NCBI GenBank assembly: GCA_964639185.1
Contig: CAZXCN010000001.1
Coordinates: 38,626-102,625 of the forward strand
Direction of reading: 5' to 3'
Origin: an uncultured Candidatus Saccharibacteria bacterium
GTDB lineage: Bacteria; Patescibacteriota; Minisyncoccia; Phycocordibacterales; UBA9973
Length of the DNA stretch: 64,000 nt
Shown: positions 1-64,000 of the stretch, piece after piece
How positions within the stretch are numbered: the first letter of the stretch is position 1
How the letters are laid out: every line of letters begins with the position of its first letter
Notes under the pieces: generated by a model
What the model was told of the DNA's origin: nothing
Seen by the model: only the letters and a program-made list of their open reading frames with translations
Databases searched by the model: none
Position numbers and translations under genes: made by a program

Positions 1-557
1 TTGTAGGTGCGCGTATGACAAAAAAGATACTAGAAAGGTTAAAATTTGATAACCAAACTATAGATTTTTTAACTAATATGGTTCGCCGTCACATGTTCTT
101 TTCTGACACGGAATTAATTACATTATCTGCAGTAAGGAGAGTAATACAGAATGTAGGTCCAGAACACATATGGGAATTGATGGAAATACGTGAATGCGAC
201 AGGGTAGGCATGAAAAAGAAAGAGGCTCCTTATAGATTACGTAAATACCATGCCATGATAGAAGAAGCGCTTCATGACCCTATTTCAGTAAAACAACTCA
301 AAATCAATGGTGAGTATCTAATGAATACGTTACACATGAAACCAGGTCCTCGAATGGGTTGGATACTCATTGCATTACTAGAAGAAGTCCTCGATGATCC
401 TACAAAAAATACGGTGGAAATTTTGAGCGAAAGAGTAGGGGAGTTAGAAAAATTATCAGACACAGACCTAAAAGCATTGGGTGATAAAGCTAAAGAAAAA
501 AAGGAGGAGCTCGAAGAGGAAGAAGTAGGAAAACTGAGAAAGAAGCATGGGGTATAA
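1..557 (+). CDS. tRNA nucleotidyltransferase (CCA-adding) / poly(A) polymerase family, C-terminal portion; 5' end lies outside window
   Basis: Frame is open to position 1. C-terminal motif L.INGEYLMNTLHMKPGPRMGWILIALLEEVL..NT is typical of the CCA-enzyme C-terminal domain. Acidic/lysine-rich tail. Confidence 0.55.
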   Translation, partial: VGARMTKKILERLKFDNQTIDFLTNMVRRHMFFSDTELITLSAVRRVIQNVGPEHIWELMEIRECDRVGMKKKEAPYRLRKYHAMIEEALHDPISVKQLKINGEYLMNTLHMKPGPRMGWILIALLEEVLDDPTKNTVEILSERVGELEKLSDTDLKALGDKAKEKKEELEEEEVGKLRKKHGV

Positions 558-583
558 GAAATATGAAATTTTGGGTTGGCAAT

Positions 584-620
584 AAAAAAAACCGATTTGT
601 GTAAACAAATCGGTTTTTAT
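584..620. terminator. Bidirectional rho-independent terminator hairpin (ACCGATTTG / CAAATCGGT flanked by A- and T-runs)
   Basis: Perfect 9-bp inverted repeat with A-run upstream and T-run downstream, between convergent genes. Confidence 0.7.
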
Positions 621-634
621 TTAATAAGTTTATT

Positions 635-2527
635 TTAATCTTTGTTTTCAATGAAAACGGGATAAAATAATTTTTCAATGAACAATTCTTTATCTAAAAG
701 TGTGTTTAGATCAGTTTTTGCAATCAAATCATGCAAAAACCCACCACAAATTAATAGATCTTCCCTACTCAAACCAGAATTAGTATTCAATTCTGCAATT
801 TCTTTCTTTTGCTCTAAATAAAGCCTGTAAAGATTTTGCAAAGAACTCATAGAACTTTCAAATTGCTTCCTCTCACTATCATCATCAACCTGAGAAGAAA
901 CATAGAAAGATTCTTCTATTGCTTCCACTACATTCTCGGCAGAATTGTCTGCAAGGTCGGCTTTTGAATTTTTTGAGTACCCCACAATAACATGTGTACG
1001 ATGATTTGATAACCGATGTGCTTTGATTGCTTTATTATTTTTTAGCTCCTCAAGTAACCATTGACATGCGATCTCCCTGTTTGTCTCAAATTCCTCATGG
1101 AAAGTAACTAATTTTGATTCATTCTCTCCCTCTTCATTGGGGGCAATAGTAATTTTTACATCCGAACCATGGGCTACTTTGTCATAAGCCTCACGAATAA
1201 TGCGTTCAAGTCCATAAGCTTTTTTACCAAAAACCCAAAGGGTTTTCTTGCCTCTTGGAGATTTGTCAACATCATAAAGTGGCAATAAAAATTCAAGGAT
1301 CGATTCAAGAGATTCAAAAGATTCACTACAGTATATTGGTACAAAATTCTGCTTGGGGTTGAAAGGACCCATTTCATAATTTTTGTAATTGAATTTACCT
1401 GACTGCAATAAATAATTATTTACATCTAACCTCAGTGCTTTAAACTTTTCTTGCTCTTCTTTTGAAAGTTCAGCCTTAGCCTTACTTACTTTTGCATATG
1501 GTTTATCATTTACAACAGAAGGAGTGAGTTCATCTTTAGCTTCCTTGGAGTCTATTTTGCCTACTATCCAAAAAGATCTAGAATTAGGATTATTAACAGG
1601 CCTAACTTCATATAAATTTCCAGCAACTATAAAATCATAAGCTGTTTTCATCACAGCAGAAGTCCTAAAATGAAGCGAAAAGCTACCAGGGTTTATAATT
1701 GTGTTTAACAACTTTTTACCTTTTAAATAGACTTGAATCTCTTTTTTAGTTTCTTTTGTAAAGAAATTAATCTTAGGCAATTTAAACCAAAGCGTTTTTG
1801 TATTCTCGGCTACTGGTTTTTCGTAAGAAATGTTAGCTTTTGTTAAATTTCCTTCTATCTCCTGCCTAATGGATGGAGTAGTAGCTTTCAAATTAATACG
1901 CTTGTGTTCTTCATCAATTTCTAACGTCATATAATGACGTCCGTGCTGATAATCACTTAAACTTAAAAAGTTTTCAATAGACACAAGTAATTCAGCTAGT
2001 TTACTTAGTGTTGTTGTTTTAGGTGTGGCTGTTTGTGTTGTCATTTCTGTCTTGTTTGTTTGTGATGAATTTAAATTTTCTGAAGGTGCAACAATTTCTT
2101 GTTCATACGTTGTAGTCTCTTTTGAGATCGAATTAGTCGAGTCGTTTTTTAACCCAACAGAAGTCTTTAAGAATTGCTCAAAAGTCAAATCTTCAAATCT
2201 GTTCTTAAAAGAATTCAAGTGCTCTTCAATGATTGAAAAACGGATTGTGTCTTCTGGTATTATCGTGCAAACAATTTGATTTAATGTAACTCTTACAATA
2301 AATTTTTTCGCTTCAGCAATAAAGTTTTCGTACATAATCTCCTTAAAATGAACCTCCAGCCCTGTGCCTGCTTTTAGTGATACAGTTTTTGTAGATAATC
2401 CTTGATGTACAAAATTTTGTTTCAATAGACTAATTAGTCTATTGAAAATTACCTCTCGAGCATCGTTTGCTTTTTTCTGTTTGTTTTGAGCCTCTTTCAT
2501 GTCGGCTTTTCCATAAATTCCTACCAT
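635..2527 (-). CDS. Hypothetical protein, 630 aa, no recognisable family
   Basis: Long uninterrupted ORF with coding-like composition. No motif I can assign. Confidence 0.5.
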   Translation of the reverse strand: MVGIYGKADMKEAQNKQKKANDAREVIFNRLISLLKQNFVHQGLSTKTVSLKAGTGLEVHFKEIMYENFIAEAKKFIVRVTLNQIVCTIIPEDTIRFSIIEEHLNSFKNRFEDLTFEQFLKTSVGLKNDSTNSISKETTTYEQEIVAPSENLNSSQTNKTEMTTQTATPKTTTLSKLAELLVSIENFLSLSDYQHGRHYMTLEIDEEHKRINLKATTPSIRQEIEGNLTKANISYEKPVAENTKTLWFKLPKINFFTKETKKEIQVYLKGKKLLNTIINPGSFSLHFRTSAVMKTAYDFIVAGNLYEVRPVNNPNSRSFWIVGKIDSKEAKDELTPSVVNDKPYAKVSKAKAELSKEEQEKFKALRLDVNNYLLQSGKFNYKNYEMGPFNPKQNFVPIYCSESFESLESILEFLLPLYDVDKSPRGKKTLWVFGKKAYGLERIIREAYDKVAHGSDVKITIAPNEEGENESKLVTFHEEFETNREIACQWLLEELKNNKAIKAHRLSNHRTHVIVGYSKNSKADLADNSAENVVEAIEESFYVSSQVDDDSERKQFESSMSSLQNLYRLYLEQKKEIAELNTNSGLSREDLLICGGFLHDLIAKTDLNTLLDKELFIEKLFYPVFIENKD

Positions 2528-2667
2528 AATGTTATTTGGTTTTTAAATTTTTCTTTTATATTACATTATTTTTCTAATTTGTCAAATATTATATACACTA
2601 TAACTATAAGACATCTCAAATAAAAATAGCCCCATTAGGGCTATTTTTATTTTACTTATACTCGAGA

Positions 2668-3258: not shown

Positions 3259-3583
3259 ATGTGTTAAAAAATTACTTATTAAGATTGTTATTATAGCAAA
3301 TTTAAGGGCAAATAAAAAAAGGTCCAGCTTGCACTGGACCTTTAAACCTAATCACTTAATCACCCATATTAACAGAACAAACAGGTCTTACAAAAAACAA
3401 TCATACTTATTCAGTATCCCCAGTATTAGGCTTCGTATCTCAGTAACGAAGCCCATACCAGGAACACAAAAATGTATAATAACTATTATCCAAATAGTAC
3501 TCTTGTATAGAAATTGTGTCAATATAATAAAACATGTATAGACAAATATATTTTTTGTGTTATGCTGTTAGAAAATAGTAATT

Positions 3584-6988: not shown

Positions 6989-7861
6989 ATGGATATACCT
7001 CTTAATCTTATCTACATACATAATCAAAGCGACATACACTGTGGCGGTTTTTCGGCGCAAGATGAATCGGCTCTTGGGATAGAGGCTGGGACTCTATTAA
7101 TACAAATAAGTACTTTGCATGAATTGGTAACCTTGCATCGAACAAACCTAGGAAAGAATTTAGAAAAATACAGAGAATTATACATAATAAAAAGTGGCGA
7201 ATACACCGAAGTCCAATCAGGTGTGTTCATACATAATACTGCTACAGTAGATGACCAAGTAGTTTTTAATACAAAAAATGGAATAATAGTAATAGAGGAG
7301 GGTGTGCACATAAATCCATTTACATATTTAGTAGGACCACTACGCATAGACAAACACGCAACAATAAACCCACATGCAAATATTGGTAATTCTTATATTG
7401 GTAAATATTGCAAAGTTGGTGGCGAAGTATCCAACTCTATTATAGAAGGCTATAGCAACAAAGGTCATTATGGATACGTGGGTGACAGCTGGGTAGGAAG
7501 CTGGGTGAATTTGGGTGGGGGAACTTCTACATCGAATCTAAAGAATACTTATGGTAATATCAAAATGGGAGGGCAAGATACTGGCGAACAATTCTTGGGA
7601 TCTATAATATGCGACCACGTAAAGACTGCATCGAACACGAGTATATACACAGGCAAGGTGATCGGAGTAGGTAGCCATATATATGGAACTGTTACAAGCG
7701 ATGTTCCGAATTGTGTAAATTATTATTCAAAAGACAACACAACGAGTATCCCAATCGAAGTAATAGAAAAGACAGCAAAGAGGATGATGGCGCGTCGTGG
7801 TGTAGAATTTACAGAAGATGATAAAAAATTATTAATAAATTTATATAAAAACAATGAGTAA
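6989..7861 (+). CDS. Left-handed beta-helix (hexapeptide-repeat) protein, putative acyl/nucleotidyl transferase
   Basis: Repeated [LIV]G..[ST]..[LIV] hexapeptide periodicity in the C-terminal half. The region around GGGTSTSNLKNTYGNIKMG resembles the GlmU-type LbH acetyltransferase domain. The 3' end overlaps the tdh start by 8 nt. Confidence 0.5.
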   Translation: MDIPLNLIYIHNQSDIHCGGFSAQDESALGIEAGTLLIQISTLHELVTLHRTNLGKNLEKYRELYIIKSGEYTEVQSGVFIHNTATVDDQVVFNTKNGIIVIEEGVHINPFTYLVGPLRIDKHATINPHANIGNSYIGKYCKVGGEVSNSIIEGYSNKGHYGYVGDSWVGSWVNLGGGTSTSNLKNTYGNIKMGGQDTGEQFLGSIICDHVKTASNTSIYTGKVIGVGSHIYGTVTSDVPNCVNYYSKDNTTSIPIEVIEKTAKRMMARRGVEFTEDDKKLLINLYKNNE

Positions 7862-8795
7862 AATTTTAATCATGGGTGCATGTGGGCAGATCGGGGTAGA
7901 GCTAACATTGGCCCTGCGTAAAATTCATGGAAATGAAAATGTAATAGCGAGTGATTTAAAAGGAAATCACCCAATGCTTGTAGACGGCCCTTATATACAA
8001 CTCGATGCAACAGATGCAGTAAAGACAAAAGAGATAGTGGAAAAAGAGGGTATTACAGATATATATTTACTCGCAGCATTACTTTCTGCTACAGGGGAGC
8101 AGAATCCAAAGCTTTGCTGGGATCTAAACATGGGTAGCTTGAGGCAAATATTAGACCTAGGTGTAGAGAAAAATTTAAAAATTTTTTGGCCTTCATCTAT
8201 CGCAGTCTTTGGGCCAACTACTCCTCGTGATCAAACTCAACAACAGACTGTTATTGAACCTACTACAATGTACGGCATTACTAAGTACGCAGGCGAAATG
8301 CTCTGCCAATATTACAACAATAAATTTGGGCTTGATGTGCGAAGTGTGCGCTACCCAGGATTGATAAGCTGGAAAAGTGAGCCAGGTGGTGGAACTACCG
8401 ACTATGCTGTAGAAATTTTCTATGAGGGTATAAAGAATAAAAAATATACATGTTTCCTTGGTGAAAACACTTATCTACCTATGATGTATATGGACGATGC
8501 TATCCGTGCAACGATCGAACTCATGCAAGCACCAGCAGAAAATATTAAAAACAGAATGTCTTACAATCTTTCTGCAATTAGCTTCTCACCAAAAGAAATT
8601 ACAAACGAAATCAAAAAACACATTCCAGAATTAGAAATATCGTATGCACCCGATCAACGCCAAAAGATCGCCGACTCATGGCCTGCAAGTATCGATGACT
8701 CTGTAGCACGAAGTGATTGGGGCTGGAAACACGAATTTGATTTAGAAAAAATGACTGAAGTAATGCTTGTAAACTTAAAGGATAAGTTAAAGTAG
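7854..8795 (+). CDS. tdh: L-threonine 3-dehydrogenase (NAD-dependent epimerase/dehydratase-family type)
   Basis: N-terminal Rossmann motif ILIMGACGQIG and the Y..K active-site pair (YGITKYAGE) of the extended SDR family. Lies immediately upstream of kbl, the conserved tdh-kbl arrangement. Confidence 0.75.
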   Translation: MSKILIMGACGQIGVELTLALRKIHGNENVIASDLKGNHPMLVDGPYIQLDATDAVKTKEIVEKEGITDIYLLAALLSATGEQNPKLCWDLNMGSLRQILDLGVEKNLKIFWPSSIAVFGPTTPRDQTQQQTVIEPTTMYGITKYAGEMLCQYYNNKFGLDVRSVRYPGLISWKSEPGGGTTDYAVEIFYEGIKNKKYTCFLGENTYLPMMYMDDAIRATIELMQAPAENIKNRMSYNLSAISFSPKEITNEIKKHIPELEISYAPDQRQKIADSWPASIDDSVARSDWGWKHEFDLEKMTEVMLVNLKDKLK

Positions 8796-38024: not shown

Positions 38025-38672
38025 ATGTCGCTTGATGCAAAAAGATCACAAGAATTTGTTCCAATAAAAGAAGTTCGCGATGGTATCATTATATTAAAAG
38101 ATGGTGGTCTTCGTGCGGTTCTTGTTGCTTCATCTATCAATTTATCACTCAAATCCTCAGACGAACAAAGGGCTGTTATCTCTAATTTTCAAAACTTTCT
38201 AAATGGATTGGATTTTTCTATACAAATAGTAGTTCAATCACGCAGGCTTGATATTCGACCATATTTACTAACACTCGAAGAGCGTATGAAGTTACAAGTA
38301 GAGCCACTTATAAAAATCCAAACCAAAGAATATATGGAATTTATTCAGTCATTTACAAATGAAGTAAACATAATGACCAAAAGTTTCTTTGTTGTTGTAC
38401 CATACAGTGGTGGAACATTTAAATCCGACGAGAGCATAGTGGAAAAAGTCTTAGACATGAAAAAAGCAAAGAAAACTAATTCAAAGAAGGAGGCCGACCT
38501 AGCCAGTTTTGAGGAAAAGAGGTCACAATTGGACCAGCGAGTATCCATGATAAGTCAGGGGTTAGGTGGGTTTGGAGTACGTAGTTCACAATTAGGAACC
38601 GAAGAAGTTATCGAGATGTTTTACAAGACATTTAATCCTGGTGATATAAGTCAGGGAATAAAATTAGAATAA
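38025..38672 (+). CDS. VirB4/TrbE/CagE-family ATPase, N-terminal segment (terminated by an in-frame TAA)
   Basis: FVPIKEVRDGIIILKDGGLRAVLVASSINLSLKSSDEQRAVISNFQNFLN matches the conserved N-terminal region of VirB4 proteins. Same reading frame as the downstream ATPase ORF, separated only by TAA-TAT-ATG. Confidence 0.65.
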   Translation: MSLDAKRSQEFVPIKEVRDGIIILKDGGLRAVLVASSINLSLKSSDEQRAVISNFQNFLNGLDFSIQIVVQSRRLDIRPYLLTLEERMKLQVEPLIKIQTKEYMEFIQSFTNEVNIMTKSFFVVVPYSGGTFKSDESIVEKVLDMKKAKKTNSKKEADLASFEEKRSQLDQRVSMISQGLGGFGVRSSQLGTEEVIEMFYKTFNPGDISQGIKLE

Positions 38673-43035: not shown

Positions 43036-43040
43036 TTAAC

Positions 43041-45915: not shown

Positions 45916-46245
45916 TTAAGCCTTTATTTTAAGGAATAATTCAGATAAATCGCCTTTAATTTGCTCAAAAGAAGCCTCTTTGGCTTGTTTCTTGTAAAAA
46001 ACTATGTAAACAAAGCCTTTTTTGAGATTCACACAAGAAATAGCCCTATAACCCTGTCTTCGAAGGGAATTACGCTTTGAGGCAAGCTTGGCTACTGCTT
46101 TTGGTGCAACAAAGGCTAATTTATATACATCTTTATCCGAAAAAGCCTTATATTTCAACATAAAAAAAGGGCTATGCAAAACATTGCCTTCTTTTATGAC
46201 AGAATCGAATAACCCTTTTGTTACTCGTCTATTCTTTGAGATCAT
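45916..46245 (-). CDS. rnpA: Ribonuclease P protein component
   Basis: 109 aa, basic. Immediately downstream of rpmH (1-nt spacing), conserved synteny. Confidence 0.8.
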   Translation of the reverse strand: MISKNRRVTKGLFDSVIKEGNVLHSPFFMLKYKAFSDKDVYKLAFVAPKAVAKLASKRNSLRRQGYRAISCVNLKKGFVYIVFYKKQAKEASFEQIKGDLSELFLKIKA

Positions 46246-53529: not shown

Positions 53530-54009
53530 CTATTTGAATTGCTCTATAGCATAGCATGTTAGGCCTATTGCTACAGCATCAAGCTCGTCATCTGACTCAG
53601 TGATCTTATCCATTTTGCATAATTTGGGCACCATCGACATGATCATTTCCTTTGTAGCCTTACCATAGCCTGTTATAGCAACCTTGATTTCACCAGGGGT
53701 ATATTCATATATGTCCAAGCCTGCACGGCTAGCCTCGTATAATATAACTCCTCGAGCTTCTGATACATTCATGGCAGTTTTTTGATTGTTGGTTATATAC
53801 AGCTTCTCTATTGCTAGGGCTTTTGGTTTATAGTTCTCTATTATGTTCCTTACTTCTTCCCCTAATAAAAATAATCTTTCATGAAATTTTATCTTAGGTG
53901 TTGTTTTGAAGCATTCGGAATAAACAACAACCTCCTTTCCAGTAAGGGGTTTTTCTATTATTGCTATGCCGAGCCTTTCAAAGCCAGGGTCTATTCCAAT
54001 GATTCTCAT
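53530..54009 (-). CDS. ruvC: Crossover junction endodeoxyribonuclease RuvC
   Basis: MRIIGIDPG... RNase H-like fold with catalytic acidic residues. 159 aa. Confidence 0.9.
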   Translation of the reverse strand: MRIIGIDPGFERLGIAIIEKPLTGKEVVVYSECFKTTPKIKFHERLFLLGEEVRNIIENYKPKALAIEKLYITNNQKTAMNVSEARGVILYEASRAGLDIYEYTPGEIKVAITGYGKATKEMIMSMVPKLCKMDKITESDDELDAVAIGLTCYAIEQFK

Positions 54010-54190
54010 GTATTTTTATTTAAAAAATTATTTCGTTTAAAAGCTCTTTTCAAAAAGCACGAATATTTTCCTGTTGGAAAATTTCTCTGCTCGTCGTTCA
54101 AGAAAATAATACTCACTTTGTTCGTTTATTTTCTAAACTCCTGCGCAAGTCTTTTCTCTAAGACTTTTAAACTTCATCATAGTTTTTATT

Positions 54191-55213
54191 TTATTTTTCA
54201 ATAAACTCGAAACCTAAATGCTCATATGCCTTCTTTGTTACAGTACGTCCACGAGGTGTGCGCTCGAGGAATCCGAGCTGTATTAGGTATGGCTCGATAA
54301 CTTCCTCTATAGTAGCCTCTTCCTCACTTGTAGCTGCGGCTATCGTCTTGAGTCCAACTGGTCCACCATTGAATTTATCTATCACTGTTGTTAACACGCG
54401 TCTGTCTGAAGATGTTAATCCATGTTCATCTATCTCAAGTAATGCCAATGCTTTCTTTACAGAATCTTTCGTCATATTTGTTTTGTGTACTTGAGCAAAA
54501 TCACGACAACGCTTTAGGAAATAATTTGCAGTACGTGGTGTGAATCGTGCACGCATTGCTATTTCATCCAAAGCTTCGTCCTCGAGTACGATACCTAGGA
54601 TTTTGGCAGAGCGACCTAATATTTTTTTTATTTCTTCATGAGTGTAGAATTCTAGGCGAAAGACTCCTCCTGAGAATCTGGATCGTAGTGGTGATGACAA
54701 TAATGCAATACGAGTGGTGGCTGCGATCATGGTAAATGGTGGTAACTCGAGTTGGATCGTTCTAGCTGATGGACCTTTACCGATAATAATATCAAGTACA
54801 CCGCTTTCCATTGCTGGGTAAAGAACTTCTTCTACCATTTTATTTAGTCTGTGTATCTCATCTATAAATACAATATCACCAGGGGAGAGGTTGGTCAGTA
54901 TCGATGCCAAGTCACCAACTTTTTCAATAGCAGGTCCGGAGGTTATTTTCATTTGGCGACCAGTGTCTTTGGCTATAAGGTGGGCCAAAGTAGTTTTACC
55001 AAGGCCTGGTGGCCCATAAAATAGTATATGTTCAGGAGGGTGATTGCGTTCGCTCGCCGCTTGTAGTAATATTCGCAAGTTTTCCTTTATATTATTTTGG
55101 CCAATATAATCATCCCAGATACTTGGTCGTAAAGTTTGGTCTAAAAATCCATCATCTTTTACAGATGTTTCTTCGGAATCGATATTTTCAGTGTTTTTAT
55201 TTAGGCTTGACAT
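54191..55213 (-). CDS. ruvB: Holliday junction branch migration ATPase RuvB
   Basis: AAA+ Walker [12 protein letters not shown], Walker B VFIDEIHR, sensor motifs, and winged-helix C-terminus. Confidence 0.95.
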
Positions 55214-55478
55214 AAAAATTTTAATATGCTATACTCTTCTCAGATATGTTTTAACTGTTTATGTAAGAAGTATATCATTTCTTAATCAAAACTTCATATC
55301 AATGCAAAAGAGGACATGAATCTCTAAGCAATCAGCCCCTGGCTCTATATTTGTGCGTAGGACGTCCTGGTTTATTTTTAATATTACTGGGTCCATCCTG
55401 CAATCCTGTGTTACTTTAGTGGTCTTGTATCATTAAAGGATTGTTTAGAGATTTATGTCTTTTTTAATTTCTGTTAAT

Positions 55479-55537: not shown

Positions 55538-55581
55538 TGATATTATGTTGTTATGTTTTTATCTCATGATATAGTAATAAT

Positions 55582-56121
55582 ATGGATAAAATAACAAATG
55601 GCGATGTTGAATTAAAATACCTTGATATAAATAGATATCAAGAACTTTTTGACCTTACAGATAAGAATCGTACTTATTTAAAGAAAACACTAGCTTGGTT
55701 GGACATAACTAAGACGGAAGAAGTTTCAAAAAAGTTTATTGAAACATCTCTAGAAAAACAAAAAAATGGTAGTGGAATAGCTTTTGAGATCTGGTACAAG
55801 GGTGAATTTGTTGGAATGATTGATTATCACGATATGGATAAAAGGAATAATATTGGTCGGATTGGTTATTGGTTGGATGAGGGTCATCAAGGTAAGGGTA
55901 TCATAACCGAAGCTTGTAAATTAATTATTAAATATGGTTTTGAAAAATTGAATTTAAATAGAATAGAGATAATTTGCGCGCTCCACAATCCAAGGAGTGG
56001 TGCTGTGGCACAAAGACTTGGATTTGTAAAAGAGGGGGTATTACGTAAATGGGCATTCATGTATGACCACTATGACGACATGGAATCTTGGAGCCTAATA
56101 AAAGGTGAAGAATCTTTCTAA
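55582..56121 (+). CDS. GNAT-family N-acetyltransferase (RimJ/RimL-like)
   Basis: Acetyl-CoA binding motif region QGKGIITEA...RIEI and overall RimJ/L-like layout. 179 aa. Confidence 0.8.
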   Translation: MDKITNGDVELKYLDINRYQELFDLTDKNRTYLKKTLAWLDITKTEEVSKKFIETSLEKQKNGSGIAFEIWYKGEFVGMIDYHDMDKRNNIGRIGYWLDEGHQGKGIITEACKLIIKYGFEKLNLNRIEIICALHNPRSGAVAQRLGFVKEGVLRKWAFMYDHYDDMESWSLIKGEESF

Positions 56122-56139
56122 TATTTATAATAATATATT

Positions 56140-56169
56140 AATAGCCACGGCCGTGGCTAAGTCATATTA
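56140..56169. repeat. GC-rich palindromic repeat, copy 2 (AATAGCCACGGCCGTGGCTAAGTCATATTA)
   Basis: 18-bp perfect palindrome TAGCCACGGCCGTGGCTA. Lies between the convergent GNAT and PaaX-like genes. Confidence 0.85.
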
Positions 56170-56188
56170 CAATAAGATATCATTTGTT

Positions 56189-56746
56189 TTAAAGATTGAA
56201 ATGTCTTTCTAGTCTTTCTCTATTTGTTAAGTCTTTTACTAATGCAAATTGGACGTATTTACCAATGTTCCAATAATTCGCTATGAAATCAATCTCTTTC
56301 TGGCAAGGGTATGGGTATACCCACACACTATCATTAAATTTTATAAAACCCATTTCTTTCATCTTGTTTCTCAGGGAATCTCTGGCGTTTCTTTTATTTT
56401 CTGGAATATCAAAGATTATCATTCTAAAATTCCTATCCCAAACCTTATCTTCTTTAATTTTAATTTCCTCATAATTAAATCTAAGAAATATTTTCTTGCC
56501 ATCTTCTGTTAAGGTAATCTTGTCTTCTTTTCCAATCTTTTCTATTTTAATTAATTTCTGCTTTCTTAGTTTATGAAAATACTGACTAACATTTTTAGGT
56601 TTTTTATCTTTAAAAATATCTTTTATAATTTCATTTGCAAACTTATAACTAACTCTTTTATTTGAGAGGGTAGCAAGTACCCCCAGACTCATACCCAGAG
56701 ATCTTATTATTTTTCCACTTGTTGATGACTTATCTATGTTTCTCAT
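56189..56746 (-). CDS. Short PaaX-family-like transcriptional regulator (winged helix plus PaaX WD...FD.PE...R..R..L...GF....SVWV.P motif)
   Basis: N-terminal wHTH-like region. Motif WDRNFRMIIFDIPENKRNARDSLRNKMKEMGFIKFNDSVWVYPYP matches the conserved PaaX core (WDG.W.L....VPE..R..RD.LR..L...GF..L..GVWV.P). 185 aa, shorter than E. coli PaaX. Confidence 0.5.
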   Translation of the reverse strand: MRNIDKSSTSGKIIRSLGMSLGVLATLSNKRVSYKFANEIIKDIFKDKKPKNVSQYFHKLRKQKLIKIEKIGKEDKITLTEDGKKIFLRFNYEEIKIKEDKVWDRNFRMIIFDIPENKRNARDSLRNKMKEMGFIKFNDSVWVYPYPCQKEIDFIANYWNIGKYVQFALVKDLTNRERLERHFNL

Positions 56747-56764
56747 CTGTATTTAATTATATCA

Positions 56765-56795
56765 CAATAGCCACGGCCGTGGCTAAGTCATATTA
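56765..56795. repeat. GC-rich palindromic repeat, copy 3 (CAATAGCCACGGCCGTGGCTAAGTCATATTA)
   Basis: Identical to copy 2 over 30 nt. Lies between the PaaX-like gene and the pilB/gspE stop. Confidence 0.85.
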
Positions 56796-56814
56796 ATTAT
56801 TTTAATTAGATGTT

Positions 56815-58533
56815 TTAGGCTTCGTAGAAGTCTACAACACTAGCCACTTCTTCGTACGATGTGATACCTGTTAGGATTTTTACCACACCATCTTCTTTCA
56901 TATTTAGTATGCCTTGGTTTGCGGCTACTTCACGGATCTCGCGTTCGCTTGGGTTTTTTGGGATGATGGCTTCTATGTTGGCATCATTTTGTATTGCTTC
57001 AAATAATCCCATACGGCCCTTGTATCCAGTATTGTTACATTGTTCGCAACCGGAAGCCTCGTATAATTTAATACCAGCTTCAATATCTACACCATAATCC
57101 TTTATATCTTTGTTATGAGTTTTAGCTTCGGCAATAATAGCATTTATTATTTTTAACTCTTCTTCGTTTACTTGTTTTTCCTTTTTGCAATTTACGCATA
57201 GCTTGCGTACAAGACGCTGAGCAATGGAGAGTGAAAGTGCAGAAACCAATATCTTTGGATTTACATCTAGGTCGATAAGGCGGGGGATCACACCAGCTGC
57301 ATTGTTGGTATGAAGGGTTGAGAACACTAGGTGGCCAGTAAGTGCTGATTCGACAGCTATCTTTGCTGTCTCTGCGTCACGGATTTCACCCACCATGATT
57401 ACATCTGGGTCTTGGCGTAGTGATGAACGTAAGCCTTCGAGGAATGTATAACCTTTTTCATCACTTGTTTGAGTTTGAGTAATACCAGGCAAGTGGTATT
57501 CGATAGGGTCTTCGATTGTGATGATTTTTATTTCAGTTGAATATATTCTTTGCAAGAATGCATAGAGTGTTGTTGTCTTACCACTACCTGTTGGACCAGT
57601 TAGGAGTATCATGCCATTTGGCTTTTTTATTTCACGCATGAATACTTCGTATAATTTGGGTTCGATACCCATATCCTCAAGTTTTACACGGATAGATTTT
57701 GGATTTAATATACGCATTACCACGCCCTCGCCATATGCACCAGGTATTAGTGATACACGCACACTTATTTCTTCCTCGTTAAGGATTATACTGAATCGTC
57801 CGTCTTGTGCTGTGCGTTCAGTACTTATCTTTACGCCTGATAATATTTTAATACGTGAATTTAGAAAGCGATGTATTTCATGAGGTATATCGATCACTTC
57901 TTGGAGTACACCATCGAGTCGGTATCGGAGTCTAACAGTAGCTTCCTCTGGTTCAAAGTGTATATCTGAAGCATCAATAGCAATAGCACCAGCTAGTATT
58001 ACTTCGAGTATGTGTGATGTAGTGTGAACTTTATCTTTCTCGACTTCTTCTATTTTTTTCTTTACATCGACTAAGCTTTTTATATCTTTACCTATCTCGC
58101 TTAGGACTTCACCAGATATGTCTATGCTACCAGCATGAGATTGTTCAGCATAAGACATTTCTTTGTACCTATCCCAAGCTTTAGTCAGGCTCGCAAGTGA
58201 AGCCATATAGAAGTGGGGAATAAAACCATGGTTTTTGAAATATTCAGTTAGTTTTGTTAAGTGTTCAGGTATGGGTGATCGTACTGCTACATGTAGTTCG
58301 TGCCCGAGCACCTTAAAAGGGGCTACTTGTTCTTCCAAAGCATCTTTTTCTTTCATTGCACGTAAAGCATCATTCTCTATTGGAAGGTTAGCTAGGTTGA
58401 TATGAGGGATATTGTACTTGCTTTCGGCAAGCATAGCCACTAACTCCTCCTCTTCATCTTTTCTTAAATCTTGAAGCTCTTTTTCACTCTTATCGTCATC
58501 AAATTGAATTGTCATAATGGCCTTATTATACAA
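56815..58533 (-). CDS. Type II secretion / type IV pilus assembly ATPase (GspE/PilB family)
   Basis: N-terminal GspII-type domain, Walker A LLTGPTGSGKTTTL, Asp/His boxes, and C-terminal tetra-Cys zinc motif CVNC...CEQCNNTGYKGR. 572 aa. Confidence 0.9.
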   Translation of the reverse strand: MYNKAIMTIQFDDDKSEKELQDLRKDEEEELVAMLAESKYNIPHINLANLPIENDALRAMKEKDALEEQVAPFKVLGHELHVAVRSPIPEHLTKLTEYFKNHGFIPHFYMASLASLTKAWDRYKEMSYAEQSHAGSIDISGEVLSEIGKDIKSLVDVKKKIEEVEKDKVHTTSHILEVILAGAIAIDASDIHFEPEEATVRLRYRLDGVLQEVIDIPHEIHRFLNSRIKILSGVKISTERTAQDGRFSIILNEEEISVRVSLIPGAYGEGVVMRILNPKSIRVKLEDMGIEPKLYEVFMREIKKPNGMILLTGPTGSGKTTTLYAFLQRIYSTEIKIITIEDPIEYHLPGITQTQTSDEKGYTFLEGLRSSLRQDPDVIMVGEIRDAETAKIAVESALTGHLVFSTLHTNNAAGVIPRLIDLDVNPKILVSALSLSIAQRLVRKLCVNCKKEKQVNEEELKIINAIIAEAKTHNKDIKDYGVDIEAGIKLYEASGCEQCNNTGYKGRMGLFEAIQNDANIEAIIPKNPSEREIREVAANQGILNMKEDGVVKILTGITSYEEVASVVDFYEA

Positions 58534-58555
58534 TATTATATTACTTTTTTAGTAC

Positions 58556-58583
58556 TTGACAAATCCTGTAGATTTGATATAAT
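58556..58583 (+). promoter_or_regulatory. Sigma70-like promoter: TTGACA - 16 nt - TATAAT upstream of the 58668 gene
   Basis: Exact consensus -35 and -10 hexamers with 16-nt spacing, about 85 nt upstream of the ATG. Confidence 0.55.
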
Positions 58584-58667
58584 GTAATAGAAAGTTATTC
58601 TATTATTTGTATTGGTGAAGACCACGATTTTTTCGCTGTTTTTGCCAATATAAATAACAGATTAATC

Positions 58668-59843
58668 ATGAAAACAAATAAGAAGATCTTTGCAATTATG
58701 GCGCTCGCCCTTATGGGGTTAGTAGCACCAACAAAACTCAAAGCACAAGACGCAAAAACAAAAGCTGATAATGGACAATGGTTCCATTTTGATTCTAAGG
58801 AGTACATTGTGATAATGGACGATGTTAATGACATTGCACTATTGTCTGACCAAGGTAACTTAGTTAATGGAAAATTATACAAGACTCGTTCTGGTATGAA
58901 ATTCTATACAAAGTACTCTGAGCAATGGAGAGCCAGAATGTTGGCTATCCTGACCAAAGTTACAGGAAGTCCCGTAACATCACTTGTAACTGGTTTTTCT
59001 GGAGCAAGTATTTTGCCCTGGGATCAAAACATTACTATTAAAACTAAAAACTACTACATAAATAATGGAGTAGAGGGTTTCAATAGAAACTTTACTGGTG
59101 GTACTGGAATTAGAACTGTAGTGGTCAATGGGTATCCTGTTTTAAAGGTTGCAGAACCTTGTTTTAACCCAAATGATCCAGAGGTTGAAAAAACAGAACC
59201 TGTTTTTGTAACTAAACCTAATGTTCCTAGCGCTGTTCCTCCACATGTTGTACCTGCTCCAAGAGATACTATAAAGCAAGTAGTACAACAAGTTTGTCCA
59301 TGTAGCACGTATGTTGCATGTACAAATTGTTTTGAAAGTTATCCTGTTAGTTCTGTGAGTGGACTATCCTTCAATCAATACTATCAGTTGAATTCCATGA
59401 GTCATGGTCAATTGCCAACAAGTAGTAATGATCGTTATGGTTCATTCCACGGTCCATATGGAAATATGTACACATCGATAGGCCAAACACCTGGGTATCA
59501 GAATGCAGTTTATTCTGCAACTTCTGGTCAACAGATGATATGGGCTTACGCAGGGTATTCTTCGCCACAATGTTGTGTTCAACAAGTGGCTGTGAATCCT
59601 TGCCCATGCGGACAAGCTATTCAACCTTGTCCATGTGCACAACAACCTGCACCTGCACCAGCATCTGCACCTACGGTTAAGCCAAAACGTAGATGTGGTG
59701 GATGGATTGTTGCTGGTGTTATTGCTACAGGAGTAATTGTGTATGCAATATTAACAGGTAAAAAAACAGATCAAAATTCTGGTGGACCTGGAACACAAGG
59801 TGGAGTTTTACCCACTGGTGGACCTGGAACACAAGGTGGCTAA
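58668..59843 (+). CDS. Secreted Cys-rich protein with CPC motifs, C-terminal TM anchor and tandem GGPGTQGG tail
   Basis: Signal peptide (IFAIMALALMGLVAPTKLKA-QD). Motifs CPCSTYVACTNC and NPCPCGQAIQPCPCAQ. C-terminal hydrophobic helix. A 23-nt tandem repeat encodes GGPGTQGG x2. Confidence 0.5.
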   Translation: MKTNKKIFAIMALALMGLVAPTKLKAQDAKTKADNGQWFHFDSKEYIVIMDDVNDIALLSDQGNLVNGKLYKTRSGMKFYTKYSEQWRARMLAILTKVTGSPVTSLVTGFSGASILPWDQNITIKTKNYYINNGVEGFNRNFTGGTGIRTVVVNGYPVLKVAEPCFNPNDPEVEKTEPVFVTKPNVPSAVPPHVVPAPRDTIKQVVQQVCPCSTYVACTNCFESYPVSSVSGLSFNQYYQLNSMSHGQLPTSSNDRYGSFHGPYGNMYTSIGQTPGYQNAVYSATSGQQMIWAYAGYSSPQCCVQQVAVNPCPCGQAIQPCPCAQQPAPAPASAPTVKPKRRCGGWIVAGVIATGVIVYAILTGKKTDQNSGGPGTQGGVLPTGGPGTQGG

Positions 59844-59872
59844 CAGTAGTTAACTTTGAGTAAAAAATTTTC

Positions 59873-59917
59873 GGTGAAGCTTCGTCATGTATATGACAAA
59901 AGCTTCACCACTTTTTT
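59873..59917 (+). terminator. Compound terminator hairpin (GGTGAAGCTT ... AAGCTTCACC with nested GTCAT..ATGAC, then T-run)
   Basis: 10-bp outer stem, nested palindrome in the loop, followed by CTTTTTT. Confidence 0.65.
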
Positions 59918-59999
59918 AAGTCTTGAACCGAAAAGTCGTCGTGTTAAAGATTTAAAATTGTAAACCTATCCACCTTTGGTGGATTAATTAAAAAAAATT

Positions 60000-62594
60000 A
60001 TGAATAAAATTATTAAAAAAGTCGTATTTATTTTCGCATTCGCAATGCTGTTTACAGCACCGACTGCTTTTGCTGCACCTTTTAATACAGATCCACAAGA
60101 TTGTGCAACAGGAGCTATTGGTAATGCTACTACTAATACAGGAGTTCCTACTTCTTGGGCGATGAGTTGTCAGAATTGGAATTTAACAAGTGTTCCAGCT
60201 AGTGCTGGTGACACTATCAAGGTCCATGTTTATTTCCACAACACAAGTTCAAATCCTGCCACTAATGTAACAATTAGACTAAGTCAGTCACCTTCAAGTG
60301 GAGCTTCAAACAACTTTAACTTTGCTGGTGTTCTGGGTTCAGACCAAGGTTCAATACCATTTAACCTAAGTACTAATATTTCTACTTCTCAGACACTCAG
60401 TGTTGTAAGTGCAACATTAGCAAAAACTCAGGCAAATTTATCTAACCCAACATCTGTGTCAGCTTCACAAATAATGTCTAGTGGTCTAAATATTGGTACT
60501 GTTGGTACAGGCTGGGCAAACCAAGGTGACCTTGTTGTTACATTCCGTGTGGGTAATACTGTTGTAAACAACTGTACGCTTACCAGCTTTCAAGCAAATC
60601 CAACATCTATAAATTCAGGTGGCTCAACAACACTTTCTTGGACAAGCACTGGCTGTACATCGGTAACTATCCCAGGAGTTGGAACATTTACAAATACAAA
60701 TAGTAACACAACAGTGTCACCAAGTAACACGACGACATATTCAGCAACAGGTGGCCCAAGTGGTAACACTCTATCTACAACAGTATCAGTTAACTCTGTA
60801 TCTGCTTGTTACATCACATCATTCTCTGCATCACCTACATACATAAATTCTGGCCAATCAAGTACTCTATACTGGTCTACAACTGGTGCAACAAATGTGA
60901 CTATTAGTTCTCTTGGTACATTTGGCCCAACAGATAGCCGTGTGGTTTACCCAACAAGTACAACTACATATACACTAACAGCTAACTGTATTAACGGAAC
61001 AACAGCAGTGCAAACAGTAATAGTTACAGTAAATGGTAATAATAATGGAACTAATCCATCTGTTCGTACAGATTCACCAACAGGTGTTGATGAGGAGAGT
61101 GCTACACTTCGTGGATATGCCAATGGTAACGGTAGCTTGATCGATGCATGGCTCGAATTTCCATGTCGTGGTACACGGTATGATTATACGTATGGTGTAT
61201 CAAACACAAACTTGTCTTACAATATTTCTTCTTTGTCACCGAATACAACATACTATTATTGTGCAGCTGCGCAGAATTCATATTCCGGACAAATAATTCG
61301 TGGTAGGGAAGTTTCATTTAGAACTGATGACAACAACAATAATAATAATAACCTAGATGTAACTACAAATCCTGCAACAAGTATTGGCAAGACATATGCA
61401 ACAATCAATGGTTATGTAGATGGTAATGGTAATAGTACAACAACATGGTTCCGTTATGGTACAAGTACTGGAGCAATGACAATGTACACAAGTACAGTAA
61501 ACAATGGTAGTGGTGCAGGTAATACGTCTGCGTATCTTTCGAACCTCGCTCCTAACACAACATATTACTTCCAAGCAGTAGCAAATAATTCTGCAAGTGG
61601 AACTGTAAATGGAAATATAAAAAACTTTAACACAGATGCCTCTGTTATTAACAACAGTTCAACGAGCGTAGTCACAACTATTGCAACAAATGTATCAAGG
61701 AATAATGCAACATTAAATGGTATTTTGCTAGATACTTCGAATTTATCAACAAATGTTTATTTTGAATACGGTACTACTGTTAACTTGGGTGCCCGTACAA
61801 ATTCAAAGAACTTGGGTTCAGGAACTTCATTACCATTTAACGAATATATCTCGAACCTTGCTCCGAATACTATCTACTTCTTCCGCGCAATGGCAAATAA
61901 TAGTAACGGTACGGTAATGGGGAATATTGAAATATTCCGCACACCAGGTACAGCGGTAACACCAACACCACCAGTGAACCCACCGCAAGTTGACTCAAAA
62001 ATAATGTTAAAGATCGAGAACCGTTATCAGTTCGTATCAGTTGGTGACACTATCGACTATACAATTACTTATCAGAACATCAGTAAGACAAAGATCACAA
62101 AGCCACTATTGCAAGTAATAGTTCCACGTTATGTAGCATACTTGAATTCTTCACGCGGTACATTTGCAGTCGAGACAAACACACTCAATGTACAAGTAGA
62201 GGATTTGGCCCCAGGTGCAGGCGGAGTAGTATACCTACAAGGTCGTGTACTGTCACTGCCGGAGAATAATGCAGACATAGTAACAACAGCATACATTGCT
62301 TATACTAACGGATCAGGTGCGCAAGATTCTGCAATGGCATATGTACTGAACACTCCAAGAGCAGTCAACAACCTAACTGCATCAGCATTTGGTGCTGGGT
62401 TCTTCCCAAGTTCACTTTGTGGATGGTTGCTATGGGTTGTGATAATACTACTTATACTATGGGCATTACGTGAAATATTCCGTAGTCGTAATATGAGAAA
62501 TAATTATTATTACAATAATGCACAAGCAGTACCACCACGACCTATTAATGCAAACCCAGCACATACAGATTCGCAGGGTGTACCGCATACTTAA
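60000..62594 (+). CDS. Cell-surface protein: signal peptide, two Ig/PKD-like modules, three FN3-like repeats, DUF11/CARDB-like domain, C-terminal TM anchor and N/Y-rich tail
   Basis: Signal peptide (VVFIFAFAMLFTAPTAFA-AP). Repeated ~95-aa units with ATLNG[YI]..GNG....WFEYGT....LS.L.PNT.YYF.A.A.N. Segment DTIDYTITYQNIS...LQVIVP matches the DUF11 conserved-repeat pattern. TM LCGWLLWVVIILLILWAL. Confidence 0.6.
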   Translation: MNKIIKKVVFIFAFAMLFTAPTAFAAPFNTDPQDCATGAIGNATTNTGVPTSWAMSCQNWNLTSVPASAGDTIKVHVYFHNTSSNPATNVTIRLSQSPSSGASNNFNFAGVLGSDQGSIPFNLSTNISTSQTLSVVSATLAKTQANLSNPTSVSASQIMSSGLNIGTVGTGWANQGDLVVTFRVGNTVVNNCTLTSFQANPTSINSGGSTTLSWTSTGCTSVTIPGVGTFTNTNSNTTVSPSNTTTYSATGGPSGNTLSTTVSVNSVSACYITSFSASPTYINSGQSSTLYWSTTGATNVTISSLGTFGPTDSRVVYPTSTTTYTLTANCINGTTAVQTVIVTVNGNNNGTNPSVRTDSPTGVDEESATLRGYANGNGSLIDAWLEFPCRGTRYDYTYGVSNTNLSYNISSLSPNTTYYYCAAAQNSYSGQIIRGREVSFRTDDNNNNNNNLDVTTNPATSIGKTYATINGYVDGNGNSTTTWFRYGTSTGAMTMYTSTVNNGSGAGNTSAYLSNLAPNTTYYFQAVANNSASGTVNGNIKNFNTDASVINNSSTSVVTTIATNVSRNNATLNGILLDTSNLSTNVYFEYGTTVNLGARTNSKNLGSGTSLPFNEYISNLAPNTIYFFRAMANNSNGTVMGNIEIFRTPGTAVTPTPPVNPPQVDSKIMLKIENRYQFVSVGDTIDYTITYQNISKTKITKPLLQVIVPRYVAYLNSSRGTFAVETNTLNVQVEDLAPGAGGVVYLQGRVLSLPENNADIVTTAYIAYTNGSGAQDSAMAYVLNTPRAVNNLTASAFGAGFFPSSLCGWLLWVVIILLILWALREIFRSRNMRNNYYYNNAQAVPPRPINANPAHTDSQGVPHT

Positions 62595-62615
62595 TATCTC
62601 CGATGTAAGATAAAC

Positions 62616-62645
62616 AAAAACCCTCTTTTAAAGAGGGTTTTTGTT
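62616..62645 (+). terminator. Terminator hairpin (AAAAACCCTCTTT..AAGAGGGTTTTT)
   Basis: Perfect inverted repeat plus T-run after the surface-protein gene. Confidence 0.7.
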
Positions 62646-62671
62646 TATGTGTGTAAATATTGATTTGATGC

Positions 62672-63628
62672 ATGTGTGTGGTAGTATTTAGAAAACAAAA
62701 AAATATGAAAAAGCAAATATATGTCCGAAAAATGGAACTAAAATCTTTTTTTGTTCCTGTGATTGTTTTGGCTGTTTTAATATTATTTATACCATTTCGT
62801 ATAGAACATCACACTTTAAAAACTACACAATATATTTTTGGTGGTTTAATGAGTGCTGTTTTTTTAATGCGTTTTGTTGATATAACAATGCCAAATCACC
62901 ACATAAATTTTAAGTTGATCGACTACATACTGACTCCAGTAATTCTTGTCCTTTCATTTTGCATATTAATACCTATTGGAATTATTGCAATTATTATTGG
63001 ATACTTCTTTCCTCGAAGCTGGACATTTGTTGGCTGGCTCGTATCTACTATTGTTCTTTTTACTATAGGAATAAGACTGAGGTATTCAGGCAAGATACCT
63101 AATTTTACTCAACGTAATTATATTATGATCGCGAACCATTCATCGTGGATTGATTATTTCTTGATAGTTCATATTATGGGCTTTCGTGGTAAATACAAAA
63201 TATTTTACGGTACAAATTTACGCAAATATAAAATCTGGAATCCATTTTTGGATAGACATGGTATTGGAGTAAATCGTAAGAGTAAAATATCTCAAGGACG
63301 TGCCCATTTGCAAATGGAAAAAGATTTGAAAGATGGATACTCTATTGCTATTTTCCCTGAAGGTACACGAATGCGCTCATACGAAAAGGAACAAAAATTA
63401 CTTCCTTTTAAAGAGGGTACATTTACTACCGCAGTCAAATTTAATCTAGAGATAGTACCAATTGTTTTTGATTGGCCGATACTTTATTCGGCTCCTGATA
63501 AACCTTGGTTATTATCACCACACACAATCAAAGCAACTGTGTTACCTCGCTTGGTAACAAATAATCATGATGCTGAAAAAGTTATGGAACATGCTCATAA
63601 AGTAATGCTTCATGAGCTAAAGAATTAA
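62672..63628 (+). CDS. Membrane-bound 1-acyl-sn-glycerol-3-phosphate acyltransferase-like (PlsC/LPLAT family) with N-terminal TM region
   Basis: H(X)4D motif NHSSWID and FPEGTR motif of the lysophospholipid acyltransferase family. N-terminal three hydrophobic helices. True start may be Met at 62705. Confidence 0.65.
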   Translation: MCVVVFRKQKNMKKQIYVRKMELKSFFVPVIVLAVLILFIPFRIEHHTLKTTQYIFGGLMSAVFLMRFVDITMPNHHINFKLIDYILTPVILVLSFCILIPIGIIAIIIGYFFPRSWTFVGWLVSTIVLFTIGIRLRYSGKIPNFTQRNYIMIANHSSWIDYFLIVHIMGFRGKYKIFYGTNLRKYKIWNPFLDRHGIGVNRKSKISQGRAHLQMEKDLKDGYSIAIFPEGTRMRSYEKEQKLLPFKEGTFTTAVKFNLEIVPIVFDWPILYSAPDKPWLLSPHTIKATVLPRLVTNNHDAEKVMEHAHKVMLHELKN

Positions 63629-63702
63629 AATTATTTTTTGAATCAAAGGCAGGCCTACGGGACTGCCTTTTTTTATACCTGAAATGCTATAATAGGGGGT
63701 AT

Positions 63703-64000
63703 ATGGCAAAAATGAAAGATAATAAAAAGAGGCTGGTATTACTGGATGTGCATGCCATTATTCACCGCGCCTATCATGCATTGCCTGACTTTATGGCAAG
63801 CTCTGGCGAGCCTACAGGGGCCTTGTATGGCCTGGCTACTATGCTTATGAAGATAGTCTCTGAATTGTCACCTGATTATATCGTGGCTTGCTATGACTTA
63901 CCAAAGAAGACTTTTCGCCACGAAGCTTATGATGCATACAAAGCCGGCCGAGCAAAGACCGATGATTCATTGGTTGCCCAGCTTATAAAATCCCGCGAAG
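63703..64000 (+). CDS. polA: DNA polymerase I, N-terminal 5'-3' exonuclease domain (3' end beyond window)
   Basis: LVLLDVHAIIHRAYHALP...GEPTGALYGL matches the PolA/FEN N-terminus. TATAAT at 63687-63692 upstream. Frame open to the window end. Confidence 0.8.
   Translation, partial: MAKMKDNKKRLVLLDVHAIIHRAYHALPDFMASSGEPTGALYGLATMLMKIVSELSPDYIVACYDLPKKTFRHEAYDAYKAGRAKTDDSLVAQLIKSRE

Follow-up and report, generated by a model that had tools for sequence, protein, structure and literature searches.

Does the absence of TGA from the gene ends of one bacterial region mean that the codon has fallen out of use, or changed its meaning, in that genome? The question is raised by a stretch of 64,000 nucleotides (the window), which comes from a Patescibacteria metagenome-assembled genome (Ca. 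Nomurabacteria; class Paceibacteria/Minisyncoccia) and represents its dnaA/origin region. Those DnaA matches that bear names come from Ca. Nomurabacteria/Paceibacterota. With dnaA as anchor we fetched 80 related loci, among which the nearest specifically named ones are Ca. Paceibacteria/Paceibacterota and Ca. Nomurabacteria; many entries bear the label 'uncultured Candidatus Saccharibacteria'. From the comparisons below we consider it likely that the window is an ordinary stretch of chromosome under the standard bacterial code and that UGA, although rare, still works as a stop in its Ca. Nomurabacteria clade.

Stop codons of the window

The original prediction had reported that none of about 60 genes ends in TGA. 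Our census confirmed this: the 57 open reading frames (ORFs) in 1..64000 end in TAA (49) or TAG (8), and TGA was found at none. The ORF set is greedy and non-overlapping, with a minimum length of 60 aa; it was called by ORF heuristics rather than by a trained gene finder and covers 93.6% of the window under code 11. The eight TAG-ending ORFs largely match the genes that had been listed as ending in TAG (table 1). TGA had also been said not to occur as a sense codon, and indeed none of the 19,908 codons of the window is an in-frame TGA, while TGG occurs 165 times and glycine codons 1,335 times.

Table 1. Features of the window with their stop codons and the corresponding stops in related loci.
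Feature	Position	Strand	Stop and remarks
ORF	3329-3541		TAG; dubious ORF
tdh-like ORF	7854-8795		TAG
comM/YifB	16941-18512		TAG
ORF	34183-36615		TAG
PrgI-like ORF	37580-37981		TAG
TraC-like gene	38025..38672	+	TAA; orthologous stop is TGA in L025, L082
VirB4-like ORF	38676-40505		TAG
rnpA	45916..46245	-	TAA
dnaA	46498..47838	+	TAG; orthologous stop is TGA in L006, L030, L065
ruvC	53530..54009	-	TAG
ruvB-ruvC spacer	54010..54190		181 nt, AT-rich
ruvB	54191..55213	-	EFIEK-TAA, stop at 54191-54193
Conserved structured RNA	55309..55459	-	no entry in Rfam 15
Acyltransferase gene	62732..63628	+	TAA
polA, 5' part	63712..64000	+	runs off the window; TAG-ending in L167

Reassignment of UGA to tryptophan (code 4) or glycine (code 25) would be compatible with a window without TGA stops, and the phylum holds lineages with code 25 and also, according to reports of 2026, lineages with code 4. 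We nevertheless regard it as extremely improbable for this genome. The original prediction had raised such a change, but because in-frame TGA is entirely absent from the window, reassignment is excluded there. The coding density given above is already reached under code 11, and alignment of the window proteins to 82 loci (tblastn) revealed no TGA at a tryptophan or glycine position. Immediately to the left of the window lie tRNA-Gly genes with the anticodons GCC and TCC, no tRNA(UCA) was seen in that flank, and the one TGA stop that we located in this genome (see below) lies at a conserved protein end. Reassignment to tryptophan or glycine is thus refuted for the 67.6 kb seen.

A second possibility is that nothing specific to TGA is at work, and that AT mutation pressure together with sampling noise gives a TAA-dominated set. 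The composition of the window (GC 0.36; GC3 0.28) agrees with this. Housekeeping genes near the origin tend toward TAA stops, which would act in the same direction, and at the rate found in the window's own clade (4.4%) zero TGA in 53-57 genes has a probability of about 0.09 (0.09 for 53 genes). Under mutation pressure, however, TAG and TGA should fall alike, yet they number 8 and 0 in the window and 105 and 23 in the clade. Outside gene ends TGA is about as frequent as TAG: the window contains 1,077 TGA and 892 TAG trinucleotides in total, with 315 and 763 TGA in the two off-frames, and between genes TAA, TAG and TGA occur 359, 124 and 106 times. If the intergenic TGA share (18%) applied to gene ends, zero among 57 would have a probability of about 1e-5; at the 14.6% that the same gene neighbourhood carries in GC-matched Paceibacteria, it would be 2e-4. 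Composition and chance are therefore an unlikely explanation. The predicted avoidance of TGA stops stood in that it is strong, TGA-specific and far below compositional expectation; it did not stand as disuse, since a TGA-ending gene lies close by.

A TGA stop just beyond the window

To the right of the window we could follow the sequence on Logan contig L167, which was retrieved by exact-protein look-up with the acyltransferase. It matches positions 54126-64000 over 9,875 nt with 100.000% identity and 0 mismatches, and runs 3.5 kb beyond the right end. There polA is followed by a methyltransferase gene (PEMT/ICMT family, 166 aa) that ends TWL-TGA-TAA and overlaps the ATG of the next gene. Its TGA occupies the window-equivalent positions 66,659-66,661, 2.66 kb beyond the right end, and falls exactly at the conserved C-terminus: all 22 of the 22 aligned methyltransferase orthologues stop at the same TW[LIV] residue. 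TGA also terminates the gene in two relatives (L168-L173). The exact protein is recorded on an NCBI contig of 116,086 nt, a length shared with the contig given for DnaA, PNPase and Xth of the window. Given this stop on a window-identical contig, the claim that TGA is effectively unused is not supported.

Together, the window and the L167 extension give one TGA among 62 genes. Were RF2 lost from this genome and UGA left unassigned, as in a codon-capture intermediate, no gene end should carry UGA at all; this single case speaks only weakly against that, given the adjacent TAA. Because TAA directly follows in frame, the methyltransferase TGA would be harmless even without RF2, and the remaining TGA could be tolerated in this way. 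The back-up is found in L167, unlike at the orthologous TGA of the two relatives, where sense-like codons follow. It is in favour of RF2 loss, as are the TGA-free gene ends of the window, that the only TGA stop found in the genome is backed in this manner, and that Minisyncoccia have reassigned UGA to tryptophan at least twice, with sister lineages at 3.9-4.6% UGA. Against it, the TGA is placed precisely at the shared protein end and is kept as TGA in relatives, and the comparisons that follow place the window within a clade that uses TGA. Overall, we judge the loss of RF2 to be very unlikely.

TGA usage in the clade and in distant relatives

Among close relatives TGA makes up 23 of 528 stops (4.4%), a figure that covers about 0.6 Mb, taken around dnaA and around two further anchors, and is not genome-wide. 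Distant Paceibacteria of similar composition (GC<=0.39) have 41 TGA among 280 stops (14.6%), about three times the share of the clade, and the two groups differ strongly (Fisher p = 8e-7). The window, by comparison, fits the rate of its clade (Fisher p = 0.25). As close relatives use only about 4.4% TGA, zero in the window is unremarkable: given some 4% UGA stops, a 57-gene sample without UGA is a roughly one-in-ten outcome for the clade. In such low-UGA lineages, a count of zero TGA at the ends of about 60 genes does not indicate that the code has changed.

The depletion is clade-wide and specific to UGA. UAG is 4-5 times commoner as a stop (TAG 105, TGA 23; binomial p = 1e-13) despite the equal frequency of the two codons off-frame and between genes. 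A split of the clade into TGA-free and TGA-using genomes was not found (chi-square p = 0.44), and in the DnaA tree the TGA-using genomes L083 and L005 adjoin the window. This homogeneity, like the fit of the window to the clade rate, argues against a loss of RF2 confined to the genome under study.

TGA is still a stop in the clade: in relatives it falls exactly on stop positions of the window in dnaA, ruvB and the TraC-like gene. The ruvB of L083, the nearest relative, has TGA at the codon that is TAA in the window, overlapping the ATG of ruvC, and ruvB is also TGA-ending in L013, L019 and L024. This ruvB stop is a further point against RF2 loss. The original prediction had named an intact prfB together with TGA-terminated genes elsewhere as grounds for giving it up; the second of these is borne out by the methyltransferase gene of this genome and by ruvB of L083. 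The spacer that separates ruvB and ruvC in the window is missing from L083, and there the two genes overlap as ATGA. We also considered the ATGA at the ruvC start of the window (54006-54009) as a relic stop and rejected it, as it is merely ATG followed by AGA. By alignment, TGA likewise occupies the stop positions of dnaN, a PBP gene and tyrS in relatives. At the position matching rnpA, ORFs of rnpA size end in TGA in L005, L010, L011 and L034, in each case as an NTGA overlap with the next gene.

Such overlaps account for 10 of 28 clade TGA stops, compared with 25 of 117 in distant relatives, an enrichment without statistical significance. Roughly one in three of the UGA stops that are left may be held in ATGA start-stop overlaps, where the downstream ATG would fix the G. 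AT mutation pressure would convert TGA to TAA through G to A changes. Beyond AT pressure, selection against UGA termination may contribute: UGA termination rests on RF2 alone and UGA is most readily misread by tRNA-Trp, so that weak or leaky RF2-dependent termination is a candidate cause. RF2 itself is most likely retained and weakly used. A signature of leaky termination was absent from the gene ends: the distance from a TGA stop to the next in-frame TAA or TAG was no shorter than in other genes (Mann-Whitney p = 0.35), and tandem back-up stops were not over-represented.

Release factors and tRNAs

We looked for the release factors in the DNA at hand. A scan for the GGQ[HNS][VI]N motif of RF1/RF2 in the window and the first 166 fetched loci (about 2.9 Mb), translated in all six frames, gave no hit, and RF domains were absent from the Pfam annotations of neighbourhoods that were fetched afterwards. 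The window contains no tRNA genes. In its flanks and in the clade loci we found only Arg(TCG), Gly(GCC), Gly(TCC) and Pro(TGG), and no tRNA(UCA) among them. The lineage-wide depletion of TGA is real, and the DNA covered gives no evidence of reassignment or RF2 loss.

Published surveys point to retention of RF2, reporting prfB in essentially all code-11 Minisyncoccia. It was found in every code-11 genome of the Minisyncoccia trees except one (bioRxiv 10.64898/2026.05.24.727570), and code-11 Minisyncoccia in which UGA is 3.9-4.6% of stops keep RF2 (PMC13092985 Suppl. Table 2). A search of the literature on Parcubacteria/CPR for lost RF2 or for the use of stop codons returned nothing specific to this clade. 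As for the explanation by a tRNA-Trp with a 4-bp anticodon stem (PMC13092985), the contig prefixes of five relatives from the Nomurabacteria-type loci (L013-L024) are absent from the supplementary files of that paper, its table of 4-bp tRNA-Trp included.

Comparison with known systems

Reassignment of UGA to tryptophan was reported in 2026 within the class Minisyncoccia/Paceibacteria (PMC13092985; bioRxiv 10.64898/2026.05.24.727570). [quoted passage not shown] They differ in that in-frame UGA falls at tryptophan in 150-303 Pfam columns, whereas the window has no in-frame UGA; they usually have a tRNA-Trp(UCA), and they have no prfB (PMC13092985; bioRxiv 10.64898/2026.05.24.727570). Moreover, they lack UGA stops, whereas the window-identical contig has UGA at a conserved protein end. 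The code-25 Absconditabacteria, Gracilibacteria and JAEDAM01 (UGA = Gly) are of the same phylum and, like the window, have no UGA stops, but the window is without in-frame UGA and the tRNA-Gly genes adjoining it are ordinary.

Code-11 Minisyncoccia with very low UGA usage are a close parallel; an example is the family JAVHQB01 (order UBA6257; PMC13092985 Suppl. Table 2), which shares with the window clade the class, the standard code and an excess of UAG over UGA. Its UGA share of 3.9-4.6% is genome-wide, while the 4.4% of the window clade refers to the region given above. RF2 has been demonstrated in the JAVHQB01 family; the window clade is of Nomurabacteria type and belongs to a different order.

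In the codon-capture scenario (Osawa-Jukes; Mollicutes), AT pressure and the near-vanishing of UGA stops are the postulated first step. The window shares this near-disappearance, and the later steps (loss of RF2, a tRNA-Trp with UCA, return of UGA as a sense codon) were not seen in the DNA covered. We consider it very unlikely that the clade is a further independent Minisyncoccia lineage at the pre-reassignment stage, with UGA stops purged but for a remainder partly held in ATGA overlaps, and with RF2 perhaps already dispensable or lost in this genome, whose one observed UGA has a UAA next to it. Should RF2 be absent and UGA unassigned, the genome would represent a naturally occurring intermediate in the reassignment of a stop codon, of a kind that codon-capture theory postulates and that is seldom observed. 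The evidence favours the ordinary case, a lineage that keeps the standard code and seldom ends its genes in UGA, similar to those tabulated in 2026 from another order of the class. In a class prone to reassigning UGA, this is a second clade with few UGA stops; the practical value of the result is modest.

Small TGA-ending ORFs

Outside the called genes, five small ORFs (28-42 aa) end in TGA. For three of the five, no match was found beyond this genome's own contigs. The only conserved one, at 55286-55396, was rejected as a protein gene, as it lies inside the conserved structured RNA. The small ORF at 55191-55319 has a match in the nearest relative, L083, only, and overlaps the same RNA on the opposite strand.

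TGA is avoided as a stop codon within the window

The window (36% GC, 93.6% coding) holds 57 open reading frames (ORFs) under the rule applied to it and to all fetched loci (non-overlapping, at least 60 aa). These end in TAA (49) or TAG (8) and never in TGA, confirming the absence of TGA stops noted in the original prediction. TGA was likewise missing in frame from 19,908 codons, against 165 TGG codons. The triplet itself is common: the whole window contains 1,077 TGA versus 892 TAG, with 315 and 763 TGA in the two off-frames, and the intergenic DNA contains 106 TGA versus 124 TAG. Taking the intergenic TGA share of 18% as the neutral expectation, we calculated a probability of about 1e-5 for none in 57 stops. 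The avoidance of TGA is genuine and confined to the coding frame. Codes 4 and 25, in which UGA is read as Trp and Gly, respectively, are excluded for the window DNA, because a TGA read as sense would interrupt ORFs, yet none ends in TGA.

TGA terminates a gene beyond the window

A search for exact matches to the acyltransferase protein encoded at 62732-63628 retrieved Logan contig SRR12712865_39263 (L167), which is 100.000% identical to window positions 54126-64000 (9,875 nt) and extends 3,526 nt further. In this extension polA stops at TAG, while a PEMT/ICMT-family membrane methyltransferase of 166 aa ends ...KVRTWL-TGA-TAA, its TGA overlapping the ATG of the next gene. An NCBI contig of 116,086 nt carries this very protein, and the contig recorded for the DnaA, PNPase and Xth of the window has an identical length. 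The C-terminus falls on this TW[L/I/V] residue in all 22 aligned orthologues. The TGA stop and the ATGA overlap recur in relatives with 83% and 48% protein identity, and their next in-frame codons are not stops. With two more genes on the left extension (contig L001; stops TAA and TAG), the tally for this genome across window, L001 and L167 is one TGA in 62 genes. The original prediction is only partly supported: TGA is strongly avoided, but the suggestion that it is effectively unused is not supported, a TGA-terminated gene lying just outside the window.

Low TGA usage is a property of the clade

The named DnaA matches are 'Candidatus Nomurabacteria/Paceibacterota', and the specifically named members among 80 related loci are Paceibacteria lineages (Nomura-, Lloyd-, Yonath-, Zambryski-, Wolfebacteria and others); the window is therefore the origin region of a Patescibacteria (Paceibacteria = Minisyncoccia) metagenome-assembled genome. 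Many of the 80 loci were deposited under 'uncultured Candidatus Saccharibacteria'. The best DnaA match in the genome collection is at 83%. These loci around dnaA, one genome per species, were compared together with one closer relative (L083, GCA_964544225.1, ~80% nucleotide identity) and three close loci around pnp, with a DnaA identity of at least 73% delimiting the close clade.

Stops in the close clade were TAA 400, TAG 105 and TGA 23, so that TGA makes up 4.4%, compared with 14.0% in distant Paceibacteria and 14.6% in those with GC of at most 0.39 (clade versus GC-matched relatives, p = 8e-7). The window does not depart from its clade (p = 0.25): at the clade rate, the probability of no TGA in 53 stops is 0.09, about a one-in-ten outcome for a clade with a 4% rate. 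The TGA share is homogeneous among clade loci (p = 0.44), and the window's nearest neighbours in the DnaA tree, L083 and L005, both use TGA. The zero in the window is therefore unremarkable for its clade; it is the clade, not the window, that is unusual.

TGA is still a stop in the clade. When window proteins were aligned by tblastn through their terminal stop, TGA lay exactly opposite the window's stop 10 times, including dnaA in L006 and L030 and a TraC-like gene in L025, and never opposite Trp or Gly inside conserved proteins. Reassignment to either amino acid, raised in the original prediction, thus found no support in these alignments or in the window's 19,908 codons. In L083, the TGA that ends ruvB (...EFIEK-TGA) overlaps the ATG of ruvC; at the matching codon the window reads ...EFIEK-TAA, and a 181-nt AT-rich spacer follows.

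Neither the window nor the first 166 fetched loci contained a release factor gene, and the window, its flanks and the clade loci held no relevant tRNA. TAA comes immediately after the sole TGA stop seen in the window's genome, which would make that TGA tolerable even if RF2 had been lost in this one genome; we consider such a loss very unlikely, and the sequences surveyed gave no sign of RF2 loss or reassignment.

UGA-to-Trp reassignment is reported in Minisyncoccia for family JAKLIH01 and genus GCA-2747955 (PMC13092985; bioRxiv 10.64898/2026.05.24.727570, both 2026). Those code-4 genomes are without prfB and mostly carry tRNA-Trp(UCA) (same sources), and the tabulated JAKLIH01 genomes have no UGA stops (PMC13092985). 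Their code-11 relatives keep RF2 and use UGA for 3.9-27% of stops, including genomes at 3.9-4.6% (PMC13092985). The present clade resembles these low-UGA code-11 genomes but belongs to another order, and is a new example of an already known kind of lineage.

Depletion is specific to UGA

The depletion is shown to be clade-wide and UGA-specific. Clade UAG is 4.6-fold commoner than UGA (binomial p = 1e-13), although AT pressure should affect the two alike and neither triplet outnumbers the other in sequence that is not read. The inferred cause is selection against termination at UGA, acting in addition to mutation pressure from G to A: UGA is recognized by RF2 alone and, among the stops, is the likeliest to be misread by near-cognate tRNA-Trp. 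This fits the report in PMC4989110 that stop usage co-varies with the abundance of release factors. Of the clade's 28 remaining TGA stops, 10 lie in NTGA overlaps, in which the G belongs to the downstream start codon, versus 25 of 117 in distant relatives; this enrichment is suggestive and not significant. TGA stops were not found to be followed by extra back-up stops close by.

A structured RNA element near ruvB

A small TGA-ending ORF with tblastn matches in 28 related loci was rejected as a gene: it lies within a structured element whose indels do not come in multiples of three. This element comprises a closing helix of 17 bp (AUAAAUCUCUAAgCAAUC / GAUUGCUUAGAGAUUUAU) and three further helices; besides the closing helix it has two hairpins and an AGGAU/GUCCU helix around CCAG-[variable hairpin]-ACCAG. 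In clade sequences, 95.9% of cells form pairs versus 29-42% with partners slid, with compensatory changes in 11 pairs; the wider set has them in 24 of 35 pairs, and overall 90-96% of cells are paired versus 29-43% in slid controls. A covariance model found one copy per locus, also across more distant Paceibacteria, in much the same place, 7-10 kb beyond dnaA and on the strand opposite to it. Invariant U-G pairs point to the minus strand. No Rfam 15 match was obtained even at E<=10, and the element appears to be an undescribed RNA family.

Gene content and neighbouring features

Features of the window and its flanks
Feature	Position	Strand	Remarks
First gene block			xth, xerC/D, rpsO, alternative glmU, tdh-like epimerase beside kbl, glmS, pnp, comM/yifB, pcrA, ksgA
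tdh-like NAD-dependent epimerase/dehydrogenase, glycine C-acetyltransferase (kbl)	7854-10174	+	adjacent
RelB antitoxin / YafQ toxin	10250-10820	+	overlap 20 nt
Three large ORFs in a row	20300-25661	+	670, 344, 763 aa; no Pfam/NCBIfam match
Type-IV-secretion (T4SS)-like block	36667-44363	+	PrgI-family, TraC-like, VirB4/TraG-type P-loop ATPase, T4SS-pilin-domain protein; also L083 1-7904
Origin cluster			jag, yidC, yidD, rnpA, rpmH facing dnaA, dnaN
After dnaN			class-A PBP, tyrS, ruvC, ruvB, pilB, polA start
Acidic ORF	53255-53431	-	58 aa, tyrS-ruvC gap, stop TAG
AT-rich insertion, ruvB-ruvC	54010-54190		181 nt; ATGA overlap instead in L083
Rejected ORF	55286-55396	-	
Structured RNA element	55309-55459	-	~150 nt, just upstream of ruvB promoter region; homologues e.g. 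L083 18590-18740, L020 18936-19085, L042 19814-19973, L060 18531-18686
tRNA cluster	L001 9828-11635		Arg(TCG), Gly(GCC), Gly(TCC); ~0.95-2.76 kb left of window start

Together, the tdh-like gene and kbl look like a metabolic module that degrades threonine to glycine, which is notable in a reduced Patescibacteria genome. The three large ORFs lie in the part of the window with the lowest GC (0.315) and strongest A skew (AT skew 0.27). The T4SS-like block, which also encodes several proteins, secreted or in the membrane, that match no family, directly adjoins the jag-yidC-rnpA-rpmH/dnaA cluster, and this synteny is kept in relatives. The extremely acidic ORF (MSYSDDEIKDDLD...), probably the 'small acidic ORF' of the original prediction, was matched by tblastn in none of the fetched loci and is of doubtful coding status. 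The AT-rich insertion goes together with the switch from TGA to TAA at the end of ruvB. Loci L088 and L089 share the tRNA order of L001 plus Pro(TGG), and a further tRNA begins at the right end of L167, from ~13500. At tight gene junctions, a 1-nt gap (TAAnATG type) is commonest in the low-TGA clade (L003-L035; 45 versus 6 four-nt overlaps), whereas four-nt overlaps are relatively commoner in the distant loci (L036-L082; 18 versus 28).
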